DNA of 43,385 bases from a virus (taxonomy: Duplodnaviria > Heunggongvirae > Uroviricota > Caudoviricetes), in IMG/VR virus record IMGVR_UViG_2778261121_000005, positions 1 through 43,385 of that record; one strand, written 5' to 3'. Positions 1 to 43,385 of this stretch are shown in pieces. Both the position numbers and the translations under genes were made by a program. The notes beneath the pieces are model-generated. The model saw nothing but the letters and a program-made list of their open reading frames with translations. It did not search any database and had not been told where the DNA came from. How positions within the stretch are numbered: position 1 is the stretch's first letter; the number at the start of each line of letters is the position of its first letter.

Positions 1-1131
1 CTAAGCCGCGTGCTGCGATTCAGGGTTTACAGGCTCTCCGTGGGCTAACACTGCCAGCCCGGCAGCTTTAATATTACGTGCCGCGTTAATGTCGCGATCA
101 TGGTCTGCGCCGCATTCAGGGCAGTGCCATTTACGAACATTAAGAGGCATTTTTTGCATGGTGAAACCGCAGCAACTACAGCATTTTGAGGACGGTAAAT
201 ACTGGTCAATGGCGACCACTGACCGCCCGGCCCATTTGCCTTTGTACTGGAGCTGGCGAACAAGTTCGCTCCAGCCTGCGTCAGCTATTGCTTTAGACAG
301 CTTCGGGTTGCGGATCATGTTTTTCACCTTGAGGGATTCGACGCAAACAACTTGGTTTTCGTTAATCAGTTTGCGGGACAACTTGTGCAGATTGTCCATC
401 CGGCAATCGGCGATTTTCGCGTGGAGTCGGGCGACCTTTAAGCGGGCTTTAATACGGTTTCTTGAGCCTTTTTGCTTCCTGCTTAAACGTCGCTGTAGCA
501 GCGTTAATCGCTTCGCATATTTAGCGGTGTGGCGGGGATTGTCGGTTTTGAATCCGGTATCGGTGACGAATAAATCTTTTAAGCCCACATCAATGCCGAC
601 CGTTTTAGCGGTAACAGGCATTGATACAGGTTCAAACTCACACAGGCAGGAAACAAAGTACCTGCCAGCGCTATCTCTGGAAATGGTAACGGTTGACGGC
701 GCAGATGGTAATTCTCGACTCCAGCGAACATCCAGCGGCGACTTGCTCTTTGCTATATACAACTCGCCGTCACGGTGTTTAAACGCGCTGGCAGTGAACT
801 CAGCCACCTGTTTGTGCCGTTTGCTTTTGAAAGCCGGATATGCAGCTCGTCCGGCAAAGAAGTTAGCAAAGGCGGCTTGTTGGTGGCGCAACGACTGCTG
901 GAGGGGAACGCAGGAAACATCATTCAGCCATATGTATTCAGGCTCTTTTTTGAGCGCCGTAAGGCGAGCGTTGGCCTGTAGATAACCGATCTTTTCTTTT
1001 CGCTCGTAGTACGCATCGGTACGCCAACGAAGGATGGAATTGTAGACGAAGCGCACACAGCCAAACGTCTGAGCTAAAAGCTCAGCCTGCTCAGTTGTCG
1101 GGTAAAACCGGTATTTATATGCGCGTTTCAT
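1..1131 (-). CDS. tnpB: IS200/IS605-family TnpB (OrfB) RNA-guided nuclease-like protein, complete 376 aa
   Basis: Full ORF with stop at 1..3. C-terminal CxxC...CxxC zinc finger (CCSCCG...CPECG) followed by DRDINAARNI, and a GIDVGL aspartate motif typical of RuvC-like OrfB proteins. No tnpA between its start and ybhB. Confidence 0.85.
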   Translation of the reverse strand: MKRAYKYRFYPTTEQAELLAQTFGCVRFVYNSILRWRTDAYYERKEKIGYLQANARLTALKKEPEYIWLNDVSCVPLQQSLRHQQAAFANFFAGRAAYPAFKSKRHKQVAEFTASAFKHRDGELYIAKSKSPLDVRWSRELPSAPSTVTISRDSAGRYFVSCLCEFEPVSMPVTAKTVGIDVGLKDLFVTDTGFKTDNPRHTAKYAKRLTLLQRRLSRKQKGSRNRIKARLKVARLHAKIADCRMDNLHKLSRKLINENQVVCVESLKVKNMIRNPKLSKAIADAGWSELVRQLQYKGKWAGRSVVAIDQYLPSSKCCSCCGFTMQKMPLNVRKWHCPECGADHDRDINAARNIKAAGLAVLAHGEPVNPESQHAA

Positions 1132-1239
1132 GTGTTCACATACTAAAGAGGAAAATGTGATTATGCAAAGTACAGTTAGTCGGAAAACCGCCTCCTTTCC
1201 TCCCCGGTCTGAAGGCCGAGGTTTCCCGGAGGCATTCTA

Positions 1240-1716
1240 ATGAAACTCATCAGTAACGATCTGCGCGATGGCGATAAGCTGCCGCATCGTCATGTCTTTA
1301 ACGGCATGGGTTACGATGGCGATAATATTTCACCGCATCTGGCGTGGGATGATGTTCCTGTGGGAACGAAAAGTTTTGTTGTCACCTGCTATGACCCGGA
1401 TGCGCCAACCGGCTCCGGCTGGTGGCACTGGGTAGTTGTTAATTTACCCGCTGATACCCGCGTATTACCGCAAGGGTTTGGCTCTGGTCTGGTAGCTATG
1501 CCAGACGGCGTTTTGCAGACGCGTACCGACTTTGGTAAAACCGGGTACGATGGCGCAGCGCCGCCGAAAGGCGAAACCCATCGCTACATTTTTACCGTTC
1601 ACGCGCTGGATGTAGAACGTATTGATGTCGATGAAGGTGCCAGCGGCGCGATGGTCGGGTTTAACGTTCATTTTCACTCTCTGGCGAGTGCCTCGATTAC
1701 TGCGATGTTTAGTTAA
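1240..1716 (+). CDS. ybhB: PEBP/UPF0098-family protein, host gene flanking att-lambda
   Basis: 158 aa with PEBP motifs (DPDAP, GxHRY); sits next to the bacterial B' arm of the att site; SD GGAGG upstream. Confidence 0.85.
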   Translation: MKLISNDLRDGDKLPHRHVFNGMGYDGDNISPHLAWDDVPVGTKSFVVTCYDPDAPTGSGWWHWVVVNLPADTRVLPQGFGSGLVAMPDGVLQTRTDFGKTGYDGAAPPKGETHRYIFTVHALDVERIDVDEGASGAMVGFNVHFHSLASASITAMFS

Positions 1717-1806
1717 TCACTCTGCCAGATGGCGCAATGCCATCTGGTATCACTTAAAGGTATTAAAAACAACTTTTTGTCTTTTTACCTTCCCGTTTCG
1801 CTCAAG

Positions 1807-2405: not shown

Positions 2406-4463
2406 TCATGAAACTTCCCCATTGGTTGAAAATATGGCTCCTCCAACTCCAAGTGTATTTCGTGTTGTGCTCAACCTAAGAGGGCTGGAGTCAGAATTAG
2501 AATATCCTGTAGCAGAAATAAAAGATCCTCCACTAATAGTCAACTGCGGAACATCGGCTATATCTGAATAAGTTCTGTCAGCAACAGTATTATTTATAGC
2601 CACATGTGATCCAAAAAAACTTCTTATTGTTTGGTTTTTAACTTTACTTCCTTCAATGGTTATCCTACTACCACAGTCGGCAATAAATCCTGAATCTGCA
2701 TCCAGCGTTGCATTCATAAAAGAAGCTTCAGATCTCTCTACATCAATCCATCTAATATCTTTTGTGGGATTTGCACCAAATACATGACAAATATTAGAGT
2801 TAAACCTTACTCCATCTTGGAGGTGCATTAATTTTTTTATATCTGTACCCCATAGCCTTGGAAAATTAACAGATGCTCCTGCATGGCAATCAAATCCCAA
2901 CTCAGCCCCTGAGATATCTACAGCCTTTCCTGAAATAACAGCACCAGTGTCTGCATTAACGGCTGTTCCACAATTGCGCATATCATTACCAGCAACATCA
3001 ACACAACCCGCACCATCAATACGCACACCAAGTGCACATCCATAAAAACCTTTTTCAATATTTGGTTCAAGGACTTTACCACTTGTTTCTGCATCACTTT
3101 CTTCAACGTCATGTCGTCTTGCATCAACATATGCTGTATGAATGCAGGTTAATCCACGATATGAGCAATGTATAGTTTTATGGTCGCGTATATTAACATT
3201 TGAACCATCTCTTACATTCCACCCTATATAACAATAGCTTGCACTTGACCCCTGAAAATCTGCTTTAACATTATAAATACAATTAACTGACGCAACCGTA
3301 CTCTCTGTGCACCGTTCAAACTTGCTTACAGGCATTGATGCCTTGACATTATTTACCAGTTGCAGGGAAGAGTATCTGCTATAAGAAAAATCACATACGT
3401 AATACCCTTCTGGCATATATGCAGCAACACTTTCCTCATCAGGAGCACATCCGGTATGATATGCACTAATTTTTGCACCAAAACTACCATGAATTCCAAC
3501 GTAGAACTTTCGAGCACCTGAATACGGATAGAAATTAAGTTCAGCTTTTTGAGTTACAATAAATGCACAAACATCGCTATCATCTCTATTTTCTTCGATC
3601 TGAATAGCAAATACAGGACTTTTTGCTGCATCGCAAATGTAAAATAAATACTTGTATTCGTAATACGTTCTAACGGTTTTAGTAAACAAACGAGTGTCAG
3701 AGAAAACCACTGAGTCTTCTGATATTATTTTAATCCATGATAAGTCACATCCTGCTGAAATTTCTATTTGCTCATTGAGCACAAAACCGGAAAGAATTTT
3801 AATTATGCAAAAGCCAATGCCATTTTTCCATAGTGGACGCAGTGCAACAGCCGAGTTTAGAGCATCACTAATAGATTTAAAATTACCATATTCCCCAACT
3901 GTTATTGTGAATGCATACCTGGAATTAAATACTGCGGCACTATCTCCAGAGTTAATAGCTGCAGATATCATGTCATAATTTGATATAAAATCATTTGGCG
4001 TGATTATTTCTGCGTTTTTATTGTGCTGGGTTCTAAGTTTTGAATTTACATGAACACTTTTAACTGCAATACGGGAGTCGTCAACAAGTATTTCATTACC
4101 CTCTGTTGCTAACTCTTGTCTTAACTGATCCGGGTCATACTTCAGCACATTCGGAAAATAGAACTGCTGTGAACCATATGCATCATAAACAGCCATAGAA
4201 TGACCCTGCACAGTAACGAACTTGGCAATCTGTCCGTTATATACCGGATATCCAGCAGCGTTAATGATGATTGGTTGCGAAACAGGAACGTGAGAACCGT
4301 CTTCGTTTTCCACATAAACCTGAATCTGGTTTTCAGGATTTACCGGGTCAGTGTCAATTTTACCGATATAAATTTTTCCATTGGCTACGGCTTTAAAAGA
4401 ACGAGCCATAGTGAAGAGTTGCGAAGGCATACTCACTACAACATTGGCTGTAATGTCTGTCAT
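2406..4463 (-). CDS. tailspike protein with P22 gp9-type head-binding N-terminal domain and divergent receptor-binding domain
   Basis: N-terminal ~110 aa ([11 protein letters not shown]...[33 protein letters not shown]...[14 protein letters not shown]...NVLKYDPDQ) closely matches the P22 tailspike head-binding domain as I recall it; the rest differs from P22. Confidence 0.9.
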
Positions 4464-40700: not shown

Positions 40701-40919
40701 ATGTACTTGACACTTCAGGAGTGGAACGCACGCCAGCGACGCCCAAGAAGCCTTGAAACAGTTCGTCGATGGGTACGCGAGTGCAGGATATTCCCACCAC
40801 CGGTTAAGGATGGAAGAGAGTATCTGTTCCACGAATCAGCAGTAAAGGTTGACTTAAATCGACCAGTAACAGGTAGCCTTTTGAAGAGGATCAGAAATGG
40901 GAAGAAGGCGAAGTCATGA
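40701..40919 (+). CDS. xis: excisionase (lambda Xis)
   Basis: 72 aa MYLTLQEWNARQRRPRSLETVRRWVRECRIFPPPVKDGREYLFHESAVKVDLNRP..., near-identical to lambda Xis as recalled. Confidence 0.95.
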   Translation: MYLTLQEWNARQRRPRSLETVRRWVRECRIFPPPVKDGREYLFHESAVKVDLNRPVTGSLLKRIRNGKKAKS

Positions 40920-41967
40920 GCGCCGGGATTTACCCCCTAACCTTTATATAAGAAACAATGGATATTACTGCTACAGGGACCCAAGGACGGGTAAAGAGTT
41001 TGGATTAGGCCGAGACAGGAGGATAGCAATCACTGAAGCTATACAGGCCAACATTGAGTTATTTTCAGGACACAAGCACAAGCCTCTGACAGCGAGAATC
41101 AACAGTGATAATTCTGTTACGTTACATTCATGGCTTGATCGCTACGAAAAAATCCTCGCCAGCAGAGGAATCAAGCAGAAGACACTCATAAATTACATGA
41201 GCAAAATTAAAGCAATAAGGAGGGGTCTGCCTGATGCTCCACTTGAAAACATCACCACAAAAGAAATTGCGGCAATGCTCAATGGATACATAGACGAGGG
41301 CAAGGCGGCGTCAGCCAAGTTAATCAGATCAACACTGAGCGATGCATTCCGAGAGGCAATAGCTGAAGGCCATATAACAACAAACCCTGTCGCTGCCACT
41401 CGCGCAGCAAAATCAGAGGTAAGGAGATCAAGACTTACGGCTGACGAATACCTGAAAATTTATCAAGCAGCAGAATCATCACCATGTTGGCTCAGACTTG
41501 CAATGGAACTGGCTGTTGTTACCGGGCAGCGAGTTGGTGATTTATGCGAAATGAAGTGGTCTGATATCGTAGATGGATATCTTTATGTCGAGCAAAGCAA
41601 AACAGGCGTAAAAATTGCCATCCCAACAGCATTGCATGTTGATGCTCTCGGGATATCAATGAAGGAAACACTTGATAAATGCAAAGAGATTCTTGGCGGA
41701 GAAACCATAATTGCATCTACTCGTCGTGAACCGCTTTCATCCGGCACAGTATCAAGGTATTTTATGCGCGCACGAAAAGCATCAGGTCTTTCCTTCGAAG
41801 GGGATCCGCCAACCTTTCACGAGTTGCGCAGTTTGTCTGCAAGACTCTATGAGAAGCAGATAAGCGATAAATTTGCTCAACATCTTCTCGGGCATAAGTC
41901 GGACACCATGGCATCACAGTATCGTGATGACAGAGGCAGGGAGTGGGACAAAATTGAAATCAAATAA
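40897..41967 (+). CDS. int: tyrosine integrase (lambda Int)
   Basis: 356 aa, near-identical to lambda Int as recalled (MGRRRSHERRDLPPNLYIRNNGYYCYRDPRTGKEFGLGRDRRIAITEAIQAN...); overlaps xis. Confidence 0.95.
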   Translation: MGRRRSHERRDLPPNLYIRNNGYYCYRDPRTGKEFGLGRDRRIAITEAIQANIELFSGHKHKPLTARINSDNSVTLHSWLDRYEKILASRGIKQKTLINYMSKIKAIRRGLPDAPLENITTKEIAAMLNGYIDEGKAASAKLIRSTLSDAFREAIAEGHITTNPVAATRAAKSEVRRSRLTADEYLKIYQAAESSPCWLRLAMELAVVTGQRVGDLCEMKWSDIVDGYLYVEQSKTGVKIAIPTALHVDALGISMKETLDKCKEILGGETIIASTRREPLSSGTVSRYFMRARKASGLSFEGDPPTFHELRSLSARLYEKQISDKFAQHLLGHKSDTMASQYRDDRGREWDKIEIK

Positions 41968-42040: not shown

Positions 42041-42055
42041 TTAGTATAAAAAAGC
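42041..42055. repeat. att core (O) copy at the int-side junction, flanked by phage P' arm and bacterial B arm
   Basis: TTAGTATAAAAAAGC, identical to the copy at 1807..1821; preceded by lambda-like P' arm, followed by AGGCTTCA (reverse complement of bacterial TGAAGCCT). Confidence 0.9.
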
Positions 42056-42101: not shown

Positions 42102-43385
42102 GTGAACACATTTTCAGTTTCCCGTCTGGCGCTGGCATTGGCTTTTGGCGTGACGCTGACCGCCTGTAGCTCAACACCGCCCGATCAACGTCCTTCTGAT
42201 CAAACCGCGCCTGGTACCTCTTCGCGCCCGATTCTGTCGGCAAAAGAAGCGCAGAATTTCGATGCTCAACACTATTTTGCATCCCTGACACCAGGTGCGG
42301 CAGCGTGGAATCCTTCCCCGATTACCCTGCCTGCGCAACCTGACTTTGTTGTCGGCCCGGCGGGTACTCAAGGTGTAACGCATACCACGATTCAGGCGGC
42401 GGTAGATGCGGCAATTATCAAGCGTACCAACAAGCGCCAGTATATTGCCGTGATGCCTGGTGAGTATCAGGGAACGGTGTATATCCCTGCCGCTCCGGGT
42501 GGAATTACTCTATACGGTACAGGTGAAAAACCGATTGATGTGAAGATTGGGCTTTCCCTTGATGGTGGCATGAGCCCTGCCGACTGGCGTCACGACGTCA
42601 ACCCGCGCGGCAAATATATGCCAGGTAAACCGGCGTGGTATATGTACGATAGCTGCCAGAGTAAACGCAGCGACAGTATCGGTGTTCTCTGCTCTGCGGT
42701 CTTCTGGTCACAAAACAATGGCCTGCAACTGCAAAACCTGACCATCGAAAACACGCTGGGCGATAGCGTAGATGCGGGTAACCATCCGGCGGTGGCACTG
42801 CGTACTGATGGCGACAAAGTGCAGATCAATAACGTCAACATTCTCGGTCGTCAGAACACCTTCTTTGTCACCAACAGCGGTGTGCAGAACCGTCTGGAAA
42901 CGAATCGTCAGCCGCGTACGCTGGTGACCAACAGCTATATTGAAGGGGATGTGGATATCGTTTCTGGTCGCGGCGCAGTGGTGTTCGATAACACCGAATT
43001 CCGCGTGGTGAACTCCCGTACCCAGCAAGAAGCGTATGTGTTTGCACCGGCTACGCTGTCCAACATTTACTACGGTTTCCTCGCCGTAAACAGCCGTTTC
43101 AATGCTTCCGGTGATGGCGTGGCGCAACTGGGCCGCTCGCTGGATGTTGATGCCAATACCAACGGTCAGGTAGTGATCCGTGATAGCGCCATCAACGAAG
43201 GTTTTAACACAGCCAAACCGTGGGCTGATGCGGTGATCTCTAATCGTCCATTTGCGGGTAACACCGGCAGCGTTGATGATAACGACGAAGTACAGCGCAA
43301 TCTGAATGACACTAACTACAACCGCATGTGGGAATACAATAACCGCGGCGTGGGTAGCAAAGTGGTTGCAGAGGCGAAGAAGTAG
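42102..43385 (+). CDS. ybhC: pectinesterase-fold outer-membrane lipoprotein, host gene flanking att-lambda
   Basis: 427 aa, complete; lipoprotein signal with lipobox LTAC; on the host side of the att junction. Confidence 0.8.
   Translation: MNTFSVSRLALALAFGVTLTACSSTPPDQRPSDQTAPGTSSRPILSAKEAQNFDAQHYFASLTPGAAAWNPSPITLPAQPDFVVGPAGTQGVTHTTIQAAVDAAIIKRTNKRQYIAVMPGEYQGTVYIPAAPGGITLYGTGEKPIDVKIGLSLDGGMSPADWRHDVNPRGKYMPGKPAWYMYDSCQSKRSDSIGVLCSAVFWSQNNGLQLQNLTIENTLGDSVDAGNHPAVALRTDGDKVQINNVNILGRQNTFFVTNSGVQNRLETNRQPRTLVTNSYIEGDVDIVSGRGAVVFDNTEFRVVNSRTQQEAYVFAPATLSNIYYGFLAVNSRFNASGDGVAQLGRSLDVDANTNGQVVIRDSAINEGFNTAKPWADAVISNRPFAGNTGSVDDNDEVQRNLNDTNYNRMWEYNNRGVGSKVVAEAKK

Follow-up and report, generated by a model that had tools for sequence, protein, structure and literature searches.

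In ISDra2 of Deinococcus radiodurans, the TnpB nuclease has a zinc ribbon and a RuvC catalytic triad of the D/E/D type. Its guide RNA extends over the tnpB 3' end and the right end (RE) of the element, the guide itself is the right-end flank, and the transposon-adjacent motif (TAM) of 4-5 nt is the same as the transposon target. The subject of this analysis lies at the beginning of a 43,385-nt stretch of DNA (positions 1 to 43,385 of IMG/VR virus record IMGVR_UViG_2778261121_000005, called "the window" throughout). It is very probably a 1291-bp non-autonomous element of the IS1341 type, situated at the ATG of ybhB and having a TnpB, catalytically intact as judged from its sequence, together with its guide RNA (omega RNA). 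The window protein resembles ISDra2 TnpB over its full length and has the same triad and zinc ribbon; the guide RNA is laid out in the same way, and TAM use would follow the same rule. Unlike ISDra2, which has its own tnpA and the motif TTGAT, the window element lacks tnpA and is flanked by (T)TCAT.

The element shares with IS608 and the IS1341-type elements the subterminal hairpins at both ends, the lack of terminal inverted repeats and of a target duplication, and insertion 3' of a short motif. IS608 and the window element are also alike in having a right end that terminates in TCAA. The enterobacterial clade examined here differs from IS1341-type elements, which have been catalogued in Escherichia coli genomes (PMC9956272), in that no partner TnpA is known for it, in its strong association with start codons and in the GGAGG present in the left end (LE) of the closest subgroup. 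The guide RNA is similar to the Rfam family RAGATH-18 in having two nested stems with a GGAG...UGAA internal loop that span the tnpB stop codon, and RNAs derived from RAGATH-18 are known to guide TnpB nucleases (PMC11061315). However, RAGATH-18 has been described with IS607-type TnpBs, and the window RNA scores below the gathering threshold and is, by the Rfam criterion, not a member of that family.

Close relatives of the window gene are found in the literature under the name gipA. GipA of the Salmonella prophage Gifsy-1 is annotated as a "Peyer's patch-specific virulence factor". The genome paper on LF82 names E. coli strains LF82, CFT073, 536 and E2348/69 as having gipA (PMC2941450). The gene is reported in reviews to be induced by bile salts and within macrophages and to support colonisation of Peyer's patches, and its transcription is reported to be induced in LF82 (PMC7279240). 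The resemblance of GipA to TnpB had been noted already in 2013 (PMC3627910). The window protein has 86.4% amino-acid identity over 376 residues to Gifsy-1 GipA (tblastn against phage genomes; the copy is at positions 2501-3631 of the fetched Gifsy-1 locus, L084). The locus is carried, in one copy each, by LF82, CFT073, 536 and a strain of serotype O127:H6, which is the serotype of E2348/69, and the identity to LF82 is 100% over window positions 1-1800. These matches identify the window tnpB as the gene published as E. coli gipA. The Gifsy-1 copy abuts the start codon of the gpU homologue, a gene of the tail operon, whereas the E. coli copy is at the ATG of ybhB. Thus the gipA literature describes a virulence factor, whereas the anatomy found here is that of the nuclease gene of an insertion element.

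The element at the ybhB start codon

The initial annotation had described a solo tnpB about 108 bp from ybhB, with no tnpA in between and with the right end cut off by the window edge. The locus of CFT073, which is 100% identical to window positions 1-1800, was used to extend the sequence past position 1. It was compared with the uninterrupted bioA-ybhB junctions of K-12 and then of SCU-124, the latter of which has a near-identical spacer, and this comparison fixed both boundaries. In these alignments the empty site reads AAGGAGGGCTC^ATGAAACTC, where the caret marks the insertion point, and the occupied site reads AAGGAGGGCTC^TTGACGGCTCCCC ... GGAGGCATTCTA^ATGAAACTC. In the orientation of the element, the occupied site is TTTCAT^TAGAATGCC...(tnpB)...TAG followed by 52 nt...GCCGTCAA^GAGCCCTCCTTTCTTG, and the flank past the right-end terminus GCCGTCAA begins GAGCCCTCC. 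At the level of single letters, TTTCAT^GAGCCC in the empty site corresponds to TTTCAT^TAGAATG...GTCAA^GAGCCC in the occupied one, without any duplication of the target. The element is 1291 bp long, made up of window positions 1-1239 and 52 bp beyond position 1, and its right end is intact in CFT073.

The gap between tnpB and ybhB is exactly 108 bp. No tnpA is present inside the element, and neither the 108 bp between tnpB and the ybhB ATG nor the 52 bp from the tnpB stop codon to the right end would be long enough to contain one. Because tnpA is absent from every copy, the clade is assigned to the tnpB-only IS1341 group, and the element is classified from its sequence as a tnpA-less insertion sequence of the IS200/IS605 family. 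The gene order in CFT073 is bioBFCD, bioA, tnpB (on the opposite strand), ybhB and ybhC.

The insertion exactly splits the Shine-Dalgarno sequence of ybhB, AAGGAGGG, from its ATG. The empty sites read AAGGAGGG(T/C)TC^ATG, and the element has moved the native AAGGAGGG about 1.3 kb upstream. The element itself was already known and is annotated in RefSeq; the only new point is that it can be read as a complete TnpB/omega-RNA element whose guide is defined. The insertion between the Shine-Dalgarno sequence and the ATG, the presence of part of the RNA scaffold inside the window and the identity with gipA all go beyond the initial annotation.

Both ends have the features of the IS200/IS605 family: terminal inverted repeats are absent and similar subterminal hairpins are found at LE and RE. 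In the orientation of the element, the LE hairpin is CCTCGGCC-TTCA-GACCGGGG and the RE hairpin is CCCCGTC-ATTCA-GGGCGGGG. The two are alike and imperfect, with the consensus CCTCGSCC-TTNA-GGSCGGGG, and show compensatory changes among relatives (helix 6). The GCCTCC...GGAGGC repeat, previously proposed as the left-end hairpin, is indeed part of LE, where it forms an outer stem around the inner hairpin (Table 1). LE is kept in the relatives up to the boundary between positions 1239 and 1240, and the flanks past this boundary are unrelated. About 30 intact relatives share the right terminus, ...GGGGAGCAGTCAA (GGGGAGC(A/C)GTCAA), and their flanks diverge immediately after it. Since the sequences are unrelated after GTCAA, it must be the right-end terminus and each copy must be an independent insertion.

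Table 1. Features of the element and of the surrounding window, in window coordinates.
Feature	Position	Strand	Basis or remark
tnpB (= E. coli gipA)	1..1131	-	376-residue open reading frame (ORF), stop codon at 1-3; intact predicted RNA-guided nuclease gene
5' 73 nt of omega RNA scaffold, overlapping tnpB 3' end	1..73	-	covariance model R1
Helix 1	50-66	-	scaffold covariation
Helix 2, 5' arm	42-44	-	scaffold covariation
Helix 3, 5' arm	32-36	-	scaffold covariation
Helix 4	21-24 with 1-3 and the base just outside the window	-	scaffold covariation
Helix 5	6-9 with 15-18	-	scaffold covariation
Left end (LE), 108 bp, last element base 1239	1132..1239	-	boundary between 1239 and 1240 from empty-site comparison
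Promoter-like site TTCACA-18-GATTAT (TG-extended), outward to ybhB	1135..1164	+	consensus scan; weak lead
Outer LE repeat GCCTCC / GGAGGC	1190-1195 / 1228-1233		encloses inner hairpin
Inner IS200/IS605-type LE hairpin CCCCGGTC-TGAA-GGCCGAGG	1202-1221		sequence and relatives
GGAGG in LE, candidate replacement Shine-Dalgarno sequence for ybhB, 7 nt upstream of ATG	1228..1232	+	sequence
Target and candidate TAM, TTCAT (core TCAT), directly 5' of LE	1240..1244	-	empty-site comparison; reverse complement of the ybhB start ATGAA
ybhB, intact (PEBP-family "kinase inhibitor"), start codon abuts element	1240..1716	+	ORF; Pfam PBP, E 1.4e-41; RefSeq annotation in CFT073
Tailspike-like ORF	2406-4463
Integrase	40897-41967
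ybhC	42102-43385

The TnpB protein and its guide RNA

The ORF, Pfam and NCBIfam agree with the earlier description of a complete TnpB with zinc finger and RuvC motifs. The Pfam matches, all above the curated cut-offs, are HTH_OrfB_IS605 (PF12323, residues 1-45), OrfB_IS605 (PF01385, residues 172-274) and the zinc ribbon Cas12f1-like_TNB (PF07282, residues 287-354). The protein scores 369 bits with the NCBIfam model guided_TnpB (NF040570, "RNA-guided endonuclease TnpB family"; cut-off 100) and 400 with the narrower model "IS200_TnpB" (NF038281), slightly below its cut-off of 425. It aligns end to end with the ISDra2 TnpB structures 8bf8, 8exa and 8h1j (E about 9e-75, 39% identity). The RuvC site shows no degeneration: on careful alignment, D181, E265 and D347 of the window protein correspond to D191, E278 and D361 of ISDra2. 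The triad is kept in all ten tnpB genes that were compared, namely that of the window and nine relatives including Gifsy-1 GipA. The ratio of nonsynonymous to synonymous divergence (dN/dS) between the window gene and these nine relatives is 0.07-0.15, showing that the clade is under purifying selection. The predicted protein has the HTH/WED-REC, RuvC and zinc-ribbon architecture of TnpB RNA-guided nucleases.

The pattern TTGCAT-17-TAGTAT lies 7-9 nt before the ATG of tnpB, which has no Shine-Dalgarno sequence. The pattern was read by hand, failed the criteria of the promoter scan and is of a kind found at chance frequency; it hints that the tnpB mRNA may be leaderless. An antisense ORF of 298 codons lies within tnpB (89-985, plus strand). 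It is an entry of the mechanical ORF list and nothing marks it as a gene.

The last 200 nt of 21 elements were aligned (alignment A4) and folded with RNAalifold, resulting in six helices that extend from about 117 nt upstream of the right-end terminus to the terminus itself. In A4, 95.2% of the cells form standard pairs, compared to 39-50% when the partners are slid by 1-3 columns. Changes on both sides are seen in 20 of the 31 pairs, compared to 6-11 in the slid controls, and the observed pairing score was not matched by any of 500 column shuffles. RNAalifold also gave a long-range pairing between the HDRD codons and GUCA (A4 columns 53-56 with 204-207), which was dropped because these columns are invariant for coding reasons.

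A covariance model, R1, was built from 22 sequences and has 125 positions. In the window it matches the minus strand at positions 1-73 with 71.6 bits (E 5.6e-20), covering model positions 1-73 (about 58%), and the match is flagged as cut at the 3' side. One full-length R1 match was found downstream of each tnpB tested, including loci outside the training set. The initial annotation had placed the guide region at or beyond position 1. This holds for the guide and for the final 52 nt of the element, whereas the 5' 73 nt of the scaffold are inside the window. In seven of nine comparisons the last 87 nt of tnpB have diverged less at synonymous sites, mostly by a factor of 2-3, as would be expected of a sequence that encodes RNA structure as well. 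At the sequence level, the locus thus has the arrangement of TnpB systems, a structured RNA that covers the tnpB 3' end together with RE and leads into a guide taken from the flank. A search of the whole window with Rfam at gathering thresholds matched no family and a tRNA scan found none; a permissive Rfam search of the extended locus gave a sub-threshold RAGATH-18 match, a chance snoRNA match and nothing else.

The predicted guide, taken from the right-end flank, is 5'-GAGCCCUCCUUUCUUG(UUUG), and the candidate TAM, by analogy with other TnpBs, is (T)TCAT. The guide together with TTCAT is a perfect match to the SCU-124-type empty site and differs from the K-12 site, which reads GAACCC, only at guide position 3. 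No other TAM-plus-guide target with up to 3 mismatches is present elsewhere in the window.

Insertion at start codons and the relatives of the element

A scan of one genome per species found 79 distinct relative loci, and viral contigs contributed 57 more. The flank motif at LE is NTCAT at about 25 related insertions, which form the subgroup of the window element, and TTAT or TTAC in sister subgroups. In about 22 of the 25 TCAT-flanked insertions, some of which are possibly orthologous and not independent, the CAT adjacent to LE is the reverse complement of the start codon of a host or phage gene. A site was counted if its CAT coincided with the ATG of an ORF that points outward and has 127 codons or more. 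The pattern is seen at 12 of 14 genome loci, at ybhB in this window (1/1), at a MazG-like gene of plasmid pMB9880_2 (1/1), in all three annotated phages (at the gpU homologue of Gifsy-1, in Klebsiella phage RSU-F4K5 and in Pseudomonas phage 5399) and in 5 of 6 further viral contigs. The loci concerned are L007-L010, L014, L016, L019, L024, L028, L063, L064, L084-L086, L105, L111, L129, L130 and L133. In Gifsy-1 the element is situated between gpZ and gpU, antisense to the tail operon.

Pfam supports nine of ten abutting ORFs as real proteins, for example Tex, BcsB, a heptosyltransferase and TrbI. The ATG of Tex must be the true N-terminus because the Pfam match starts at residue 3. Among all ATGA sites of the same DNA, only 5.6% provide the first ATG of an ORF with 140 codons or more, and 17% fall in any such frame. 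For the first 16 insertions, of which 14 are positive, the binomial P is 1e-9 to 3e-16, and 3e-7 against a generous null of 25%. In the TTAT- or TTAC-flanked sister subgroups no such ORFs were found at LE. The target motif TCAT reads ATGA on the complementary strand.

In the closest subgroup, LE reads GGAGGCATTCTG^ATG on the strand of the host gene, which places a candidate Shine-Dalgarno sequence at the ideal spacing. Nevertheless, the copies of Zobellella and Pseudomonas lack GGAGG and are still located at start codons. The outward promoter-like site in LE is not significant on its own, the consensus scan having given 2 sites compared to 1.3 +/- 1.3 expected by chance. The start-codon pattern may reflect target choice, the survival of harmless insertions or real adaptation, as it fits all three. 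It is an attractive possibility, although we lean slightly against it, that the TCAT-flanked GipA clade has specialised to sit between the ribosome-binding site and the ATG, with the GGAGG of LE, and possibly an outward promoter, restoring the downstream gene. Were this true, the element could insert almost neutrally into operons with little space between genes, such as those for phage tails, and each guide RNA would be antisense to the displaced 5' untranslated region and Shine-Dalgarno sequence of the host gene. A literature search found no publication describing the start-codon pattern, which may therefore be new.

In RSU-F4K5 (L085, 2382-2513), the deposited coding-sequence starts at 2403 and 2513 fall inside LE of the element. 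This suggests that the tail-to-head joining gene may really start at the ATG at 2380-2382, from the insertion boundary.

Window positions 1-1800 are 100% identical in CFT073, Nissle 1917, LF82, ATCC 25922, NU14 and many other strains, and the named carriers of the element include CFT073, Nissle 1917, LF82, 536, NC101 and an O127:H6 strain. Of 5426 complete E. coli genomes, about 342 have the element, always as a single copy at one chromosomal site and with its ORF intact. Except for weak plasmid matches, no DNA with the same LE other than this bioA-ybhB copy was found in the 5426 genomes. A copy with about 81% nucleotide and 86% protein identity is carried by 45-47 E. coli plasmid records (pMB9880_2, NZ_CP103764.1, locus L004, 3972-5266; also L127, L128 and L136). 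On pMB9880_2 this copy follows GTCAT at the ATG of a 339-codon nucleoside triphosphate pyrophosphohydrolase (MazG-like) gene, and its LE hairpin looks degenerate. The neighbouring genes, for a large methylase, a lysozyme and ssb, suggest that pMB9880_2 could be a phage-plasmid.

Several of the relatives are pseudogenes, among them L010, L020, L022, L026, L063, L064, L072 and L074. Y1 transposase ORFs were found twice in about 140 fetched loci, both times in Endozoicomonadaceae (L058, 6357-6884; L079, 2494-2937). Within about 3 kb of the enterobacterial relatives no Y1-like ORF was found. The probe in this search of all fetched loci was an IS200 TnpA sequence. The element appears to be stranded in E. 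coli without a transposase and to be immobile there. Endozoicomonas genomes (L033-L059, L068, L073) have more than 15 related tnpB-only copies with an extra hairpin inserted in the 3' region of the guide RNA. These multicopy relatives were considered as additional TCAT-type sites and ruled out, as their flanks are TTAC or TTAT.

The remainder of the window consists of a P22-like prophage of 40.2 kb (1807-42055), which occupies lambda attB, between ybhB and ybhC. Exact copies of the lambda att core TTAGTATAAAAAAGC mark its two borders, at 1807-1821 and 42041-42055. A 20-kb query (window 1750-22000) aligns with phages JEP4, CUS-3 and Sf101 over roughly 50-64% of its length, at about 95-96% identity, and CFT073 has no prophage between ybhB and ybhC. 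Eighteen IMG/VR provirus contigs with an identical tnpB (L087-L104, 14-47 kb) end exactly at its stop codon, which accounts for the window stopping there. The window is probably a provirus call that took in the host ybhB and tnpB, its cut-off being a boundary-calling artefact at a gene edge; tnpB and ybhB are host flank and not phage.

Proposed mechanism and the gipA phenotypes

The anatomy of the element, its boundaries, the integrity of the protein, the purifying selection and the RNA covariation were observed; the steps that follow are drawn by analogy with other TnpB elements. The element, mobilised by a Y1 TnpA supplied in trans, would have inserted 3' of TTCAT without target duplication in an ancestor of those strains that now carry it. 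The omega RNA, about 125 nt long, would be transcribed and processed so that it starts in the last ~73 nt of tnpB, crosses the 52-nt right end to GTCAA and enters the flank, which would supply the guide. By homology with ISDra2 and Geobacillus elements, TnpB and this RNA would use the TAM to cut the uninterrupted bioA-ybhB junction TTTCAT^GAGCCCTCCTTTCTTG, either after excision or in a naive allele. Recombination at the cut empty site would then restore or retain the element. The occupied site would be protected because GTCAA replaces the TAM. It has been shown that TnpB cutting favours retention of the element by recombination, and TTCAT and TTTAT have been documented as TAMs (10.1101/2023.03.14.532601).

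Several observations weigh against this description of the locus. The Rfam model RAGATH-18 (RF03064), placed over the stop codon of the CFT073 gene, scores only 29 bits compared to a gathering threshold of 44.9 (E 0.006). Since the single-sequence fold of the 3' region is no better than that of shuffled sequences (z -1.5), support for the scaffold comes from covariation. The inner LE hairpin has a mismatch at window position 1208, where L007, L014, L016 and Gifsy-1 have C instead of T, so that the stem reads GACC in place of GGCC in the orientation of the element; this might impair recognition of the CFT073-type LE by TnpA. Finally, a cognate tnpA is not known in E. coli, and the homing or retention role may perhaps never be exercised there.

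The last of these points bears on the most unlikely of the explanations considered, that the locus is an inert relic. On this view the element is stranded, its TnpB and RNA have ceased to be expressed or to function in E. coli, and it is still present only because it is rarely lost. The lack of tnpA in or near every enterobacterial copy would agree with this, as would the single copy per genome with no second LE in the 5426 genomes, the pseudogenes among the relatives and the mismatch in the LE hairpin. However, the ORF, the catalytic residues, the helices of the omega RNA and both ends are all intact, and gipA transcription was reported to be induced in LF82 (PMC7279240). The same report enters into another explanation, also very unlikely, in which TnpB has been domesticated as a host factor, GipA, that aids colonisation of Peyer's patches or survival in macrophages, for instance by RNA-guided binding or regulation. 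It is in keeping with such a role that the Gifsy-1 homologue and the LF82 gene have been called Peyer's patch-specific virulence factors, induced by bile salts and in macrophages (PMC2941450, PMC7279240), that a single copy with an intact ORF is fixed at one locus in 342 genomes, and that the clade is under purifying selection.

Nevertheless, in contrast to nuclease-dead exaptations of the TldR type, the protein has an intact RuvC triad and its whole C-terminus, all parts of the transposon have been kept, and the guide is the flank, which differs at every locus. A dedicated virulence role is further argued against because the probiotic strain Nissle 1917 has an identical gene. The association of gipA with adherent-invasive E. 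coli (AIEC) was not reproduced and is considered probably phylogenetic (PMC7205867). Deletion of gipA could also act by disturbing ybhB, whose candidate ribosome-binding site now lies in the element. A reading of the window protein as a TldR, a nuclease-dead repressor, was rejected in view of the intact triad, the full-length protein and the guide derived from the insertion flank.

The reading of the locus as a TnpB/omega-RNA element changes the position of gipA, which several surveys of Salmonella and AIEC by polymerase chain reaction have used as a virulence marker, and which is in fact the nuclease gene of an insertion sequence. The published "virulence" phenotypes of gipA could stem from polar effects on the neighbour (ybhB in E. 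coli, gpU and the tail genes in Gifsy-1) or from the action of an RNA-guided nuclease, with no dedicated virulence activity being involved. The use of gipA as a marker and the deletion phenotypes thus deserve to be re-read. The TAM and guide given above make the activity of the element directly testable in a tractable host. If the insertion at start codons is adaptive, it would represent an unrecognised way for a minimal transposon to enter dense genomes without silencing the downstream gene.

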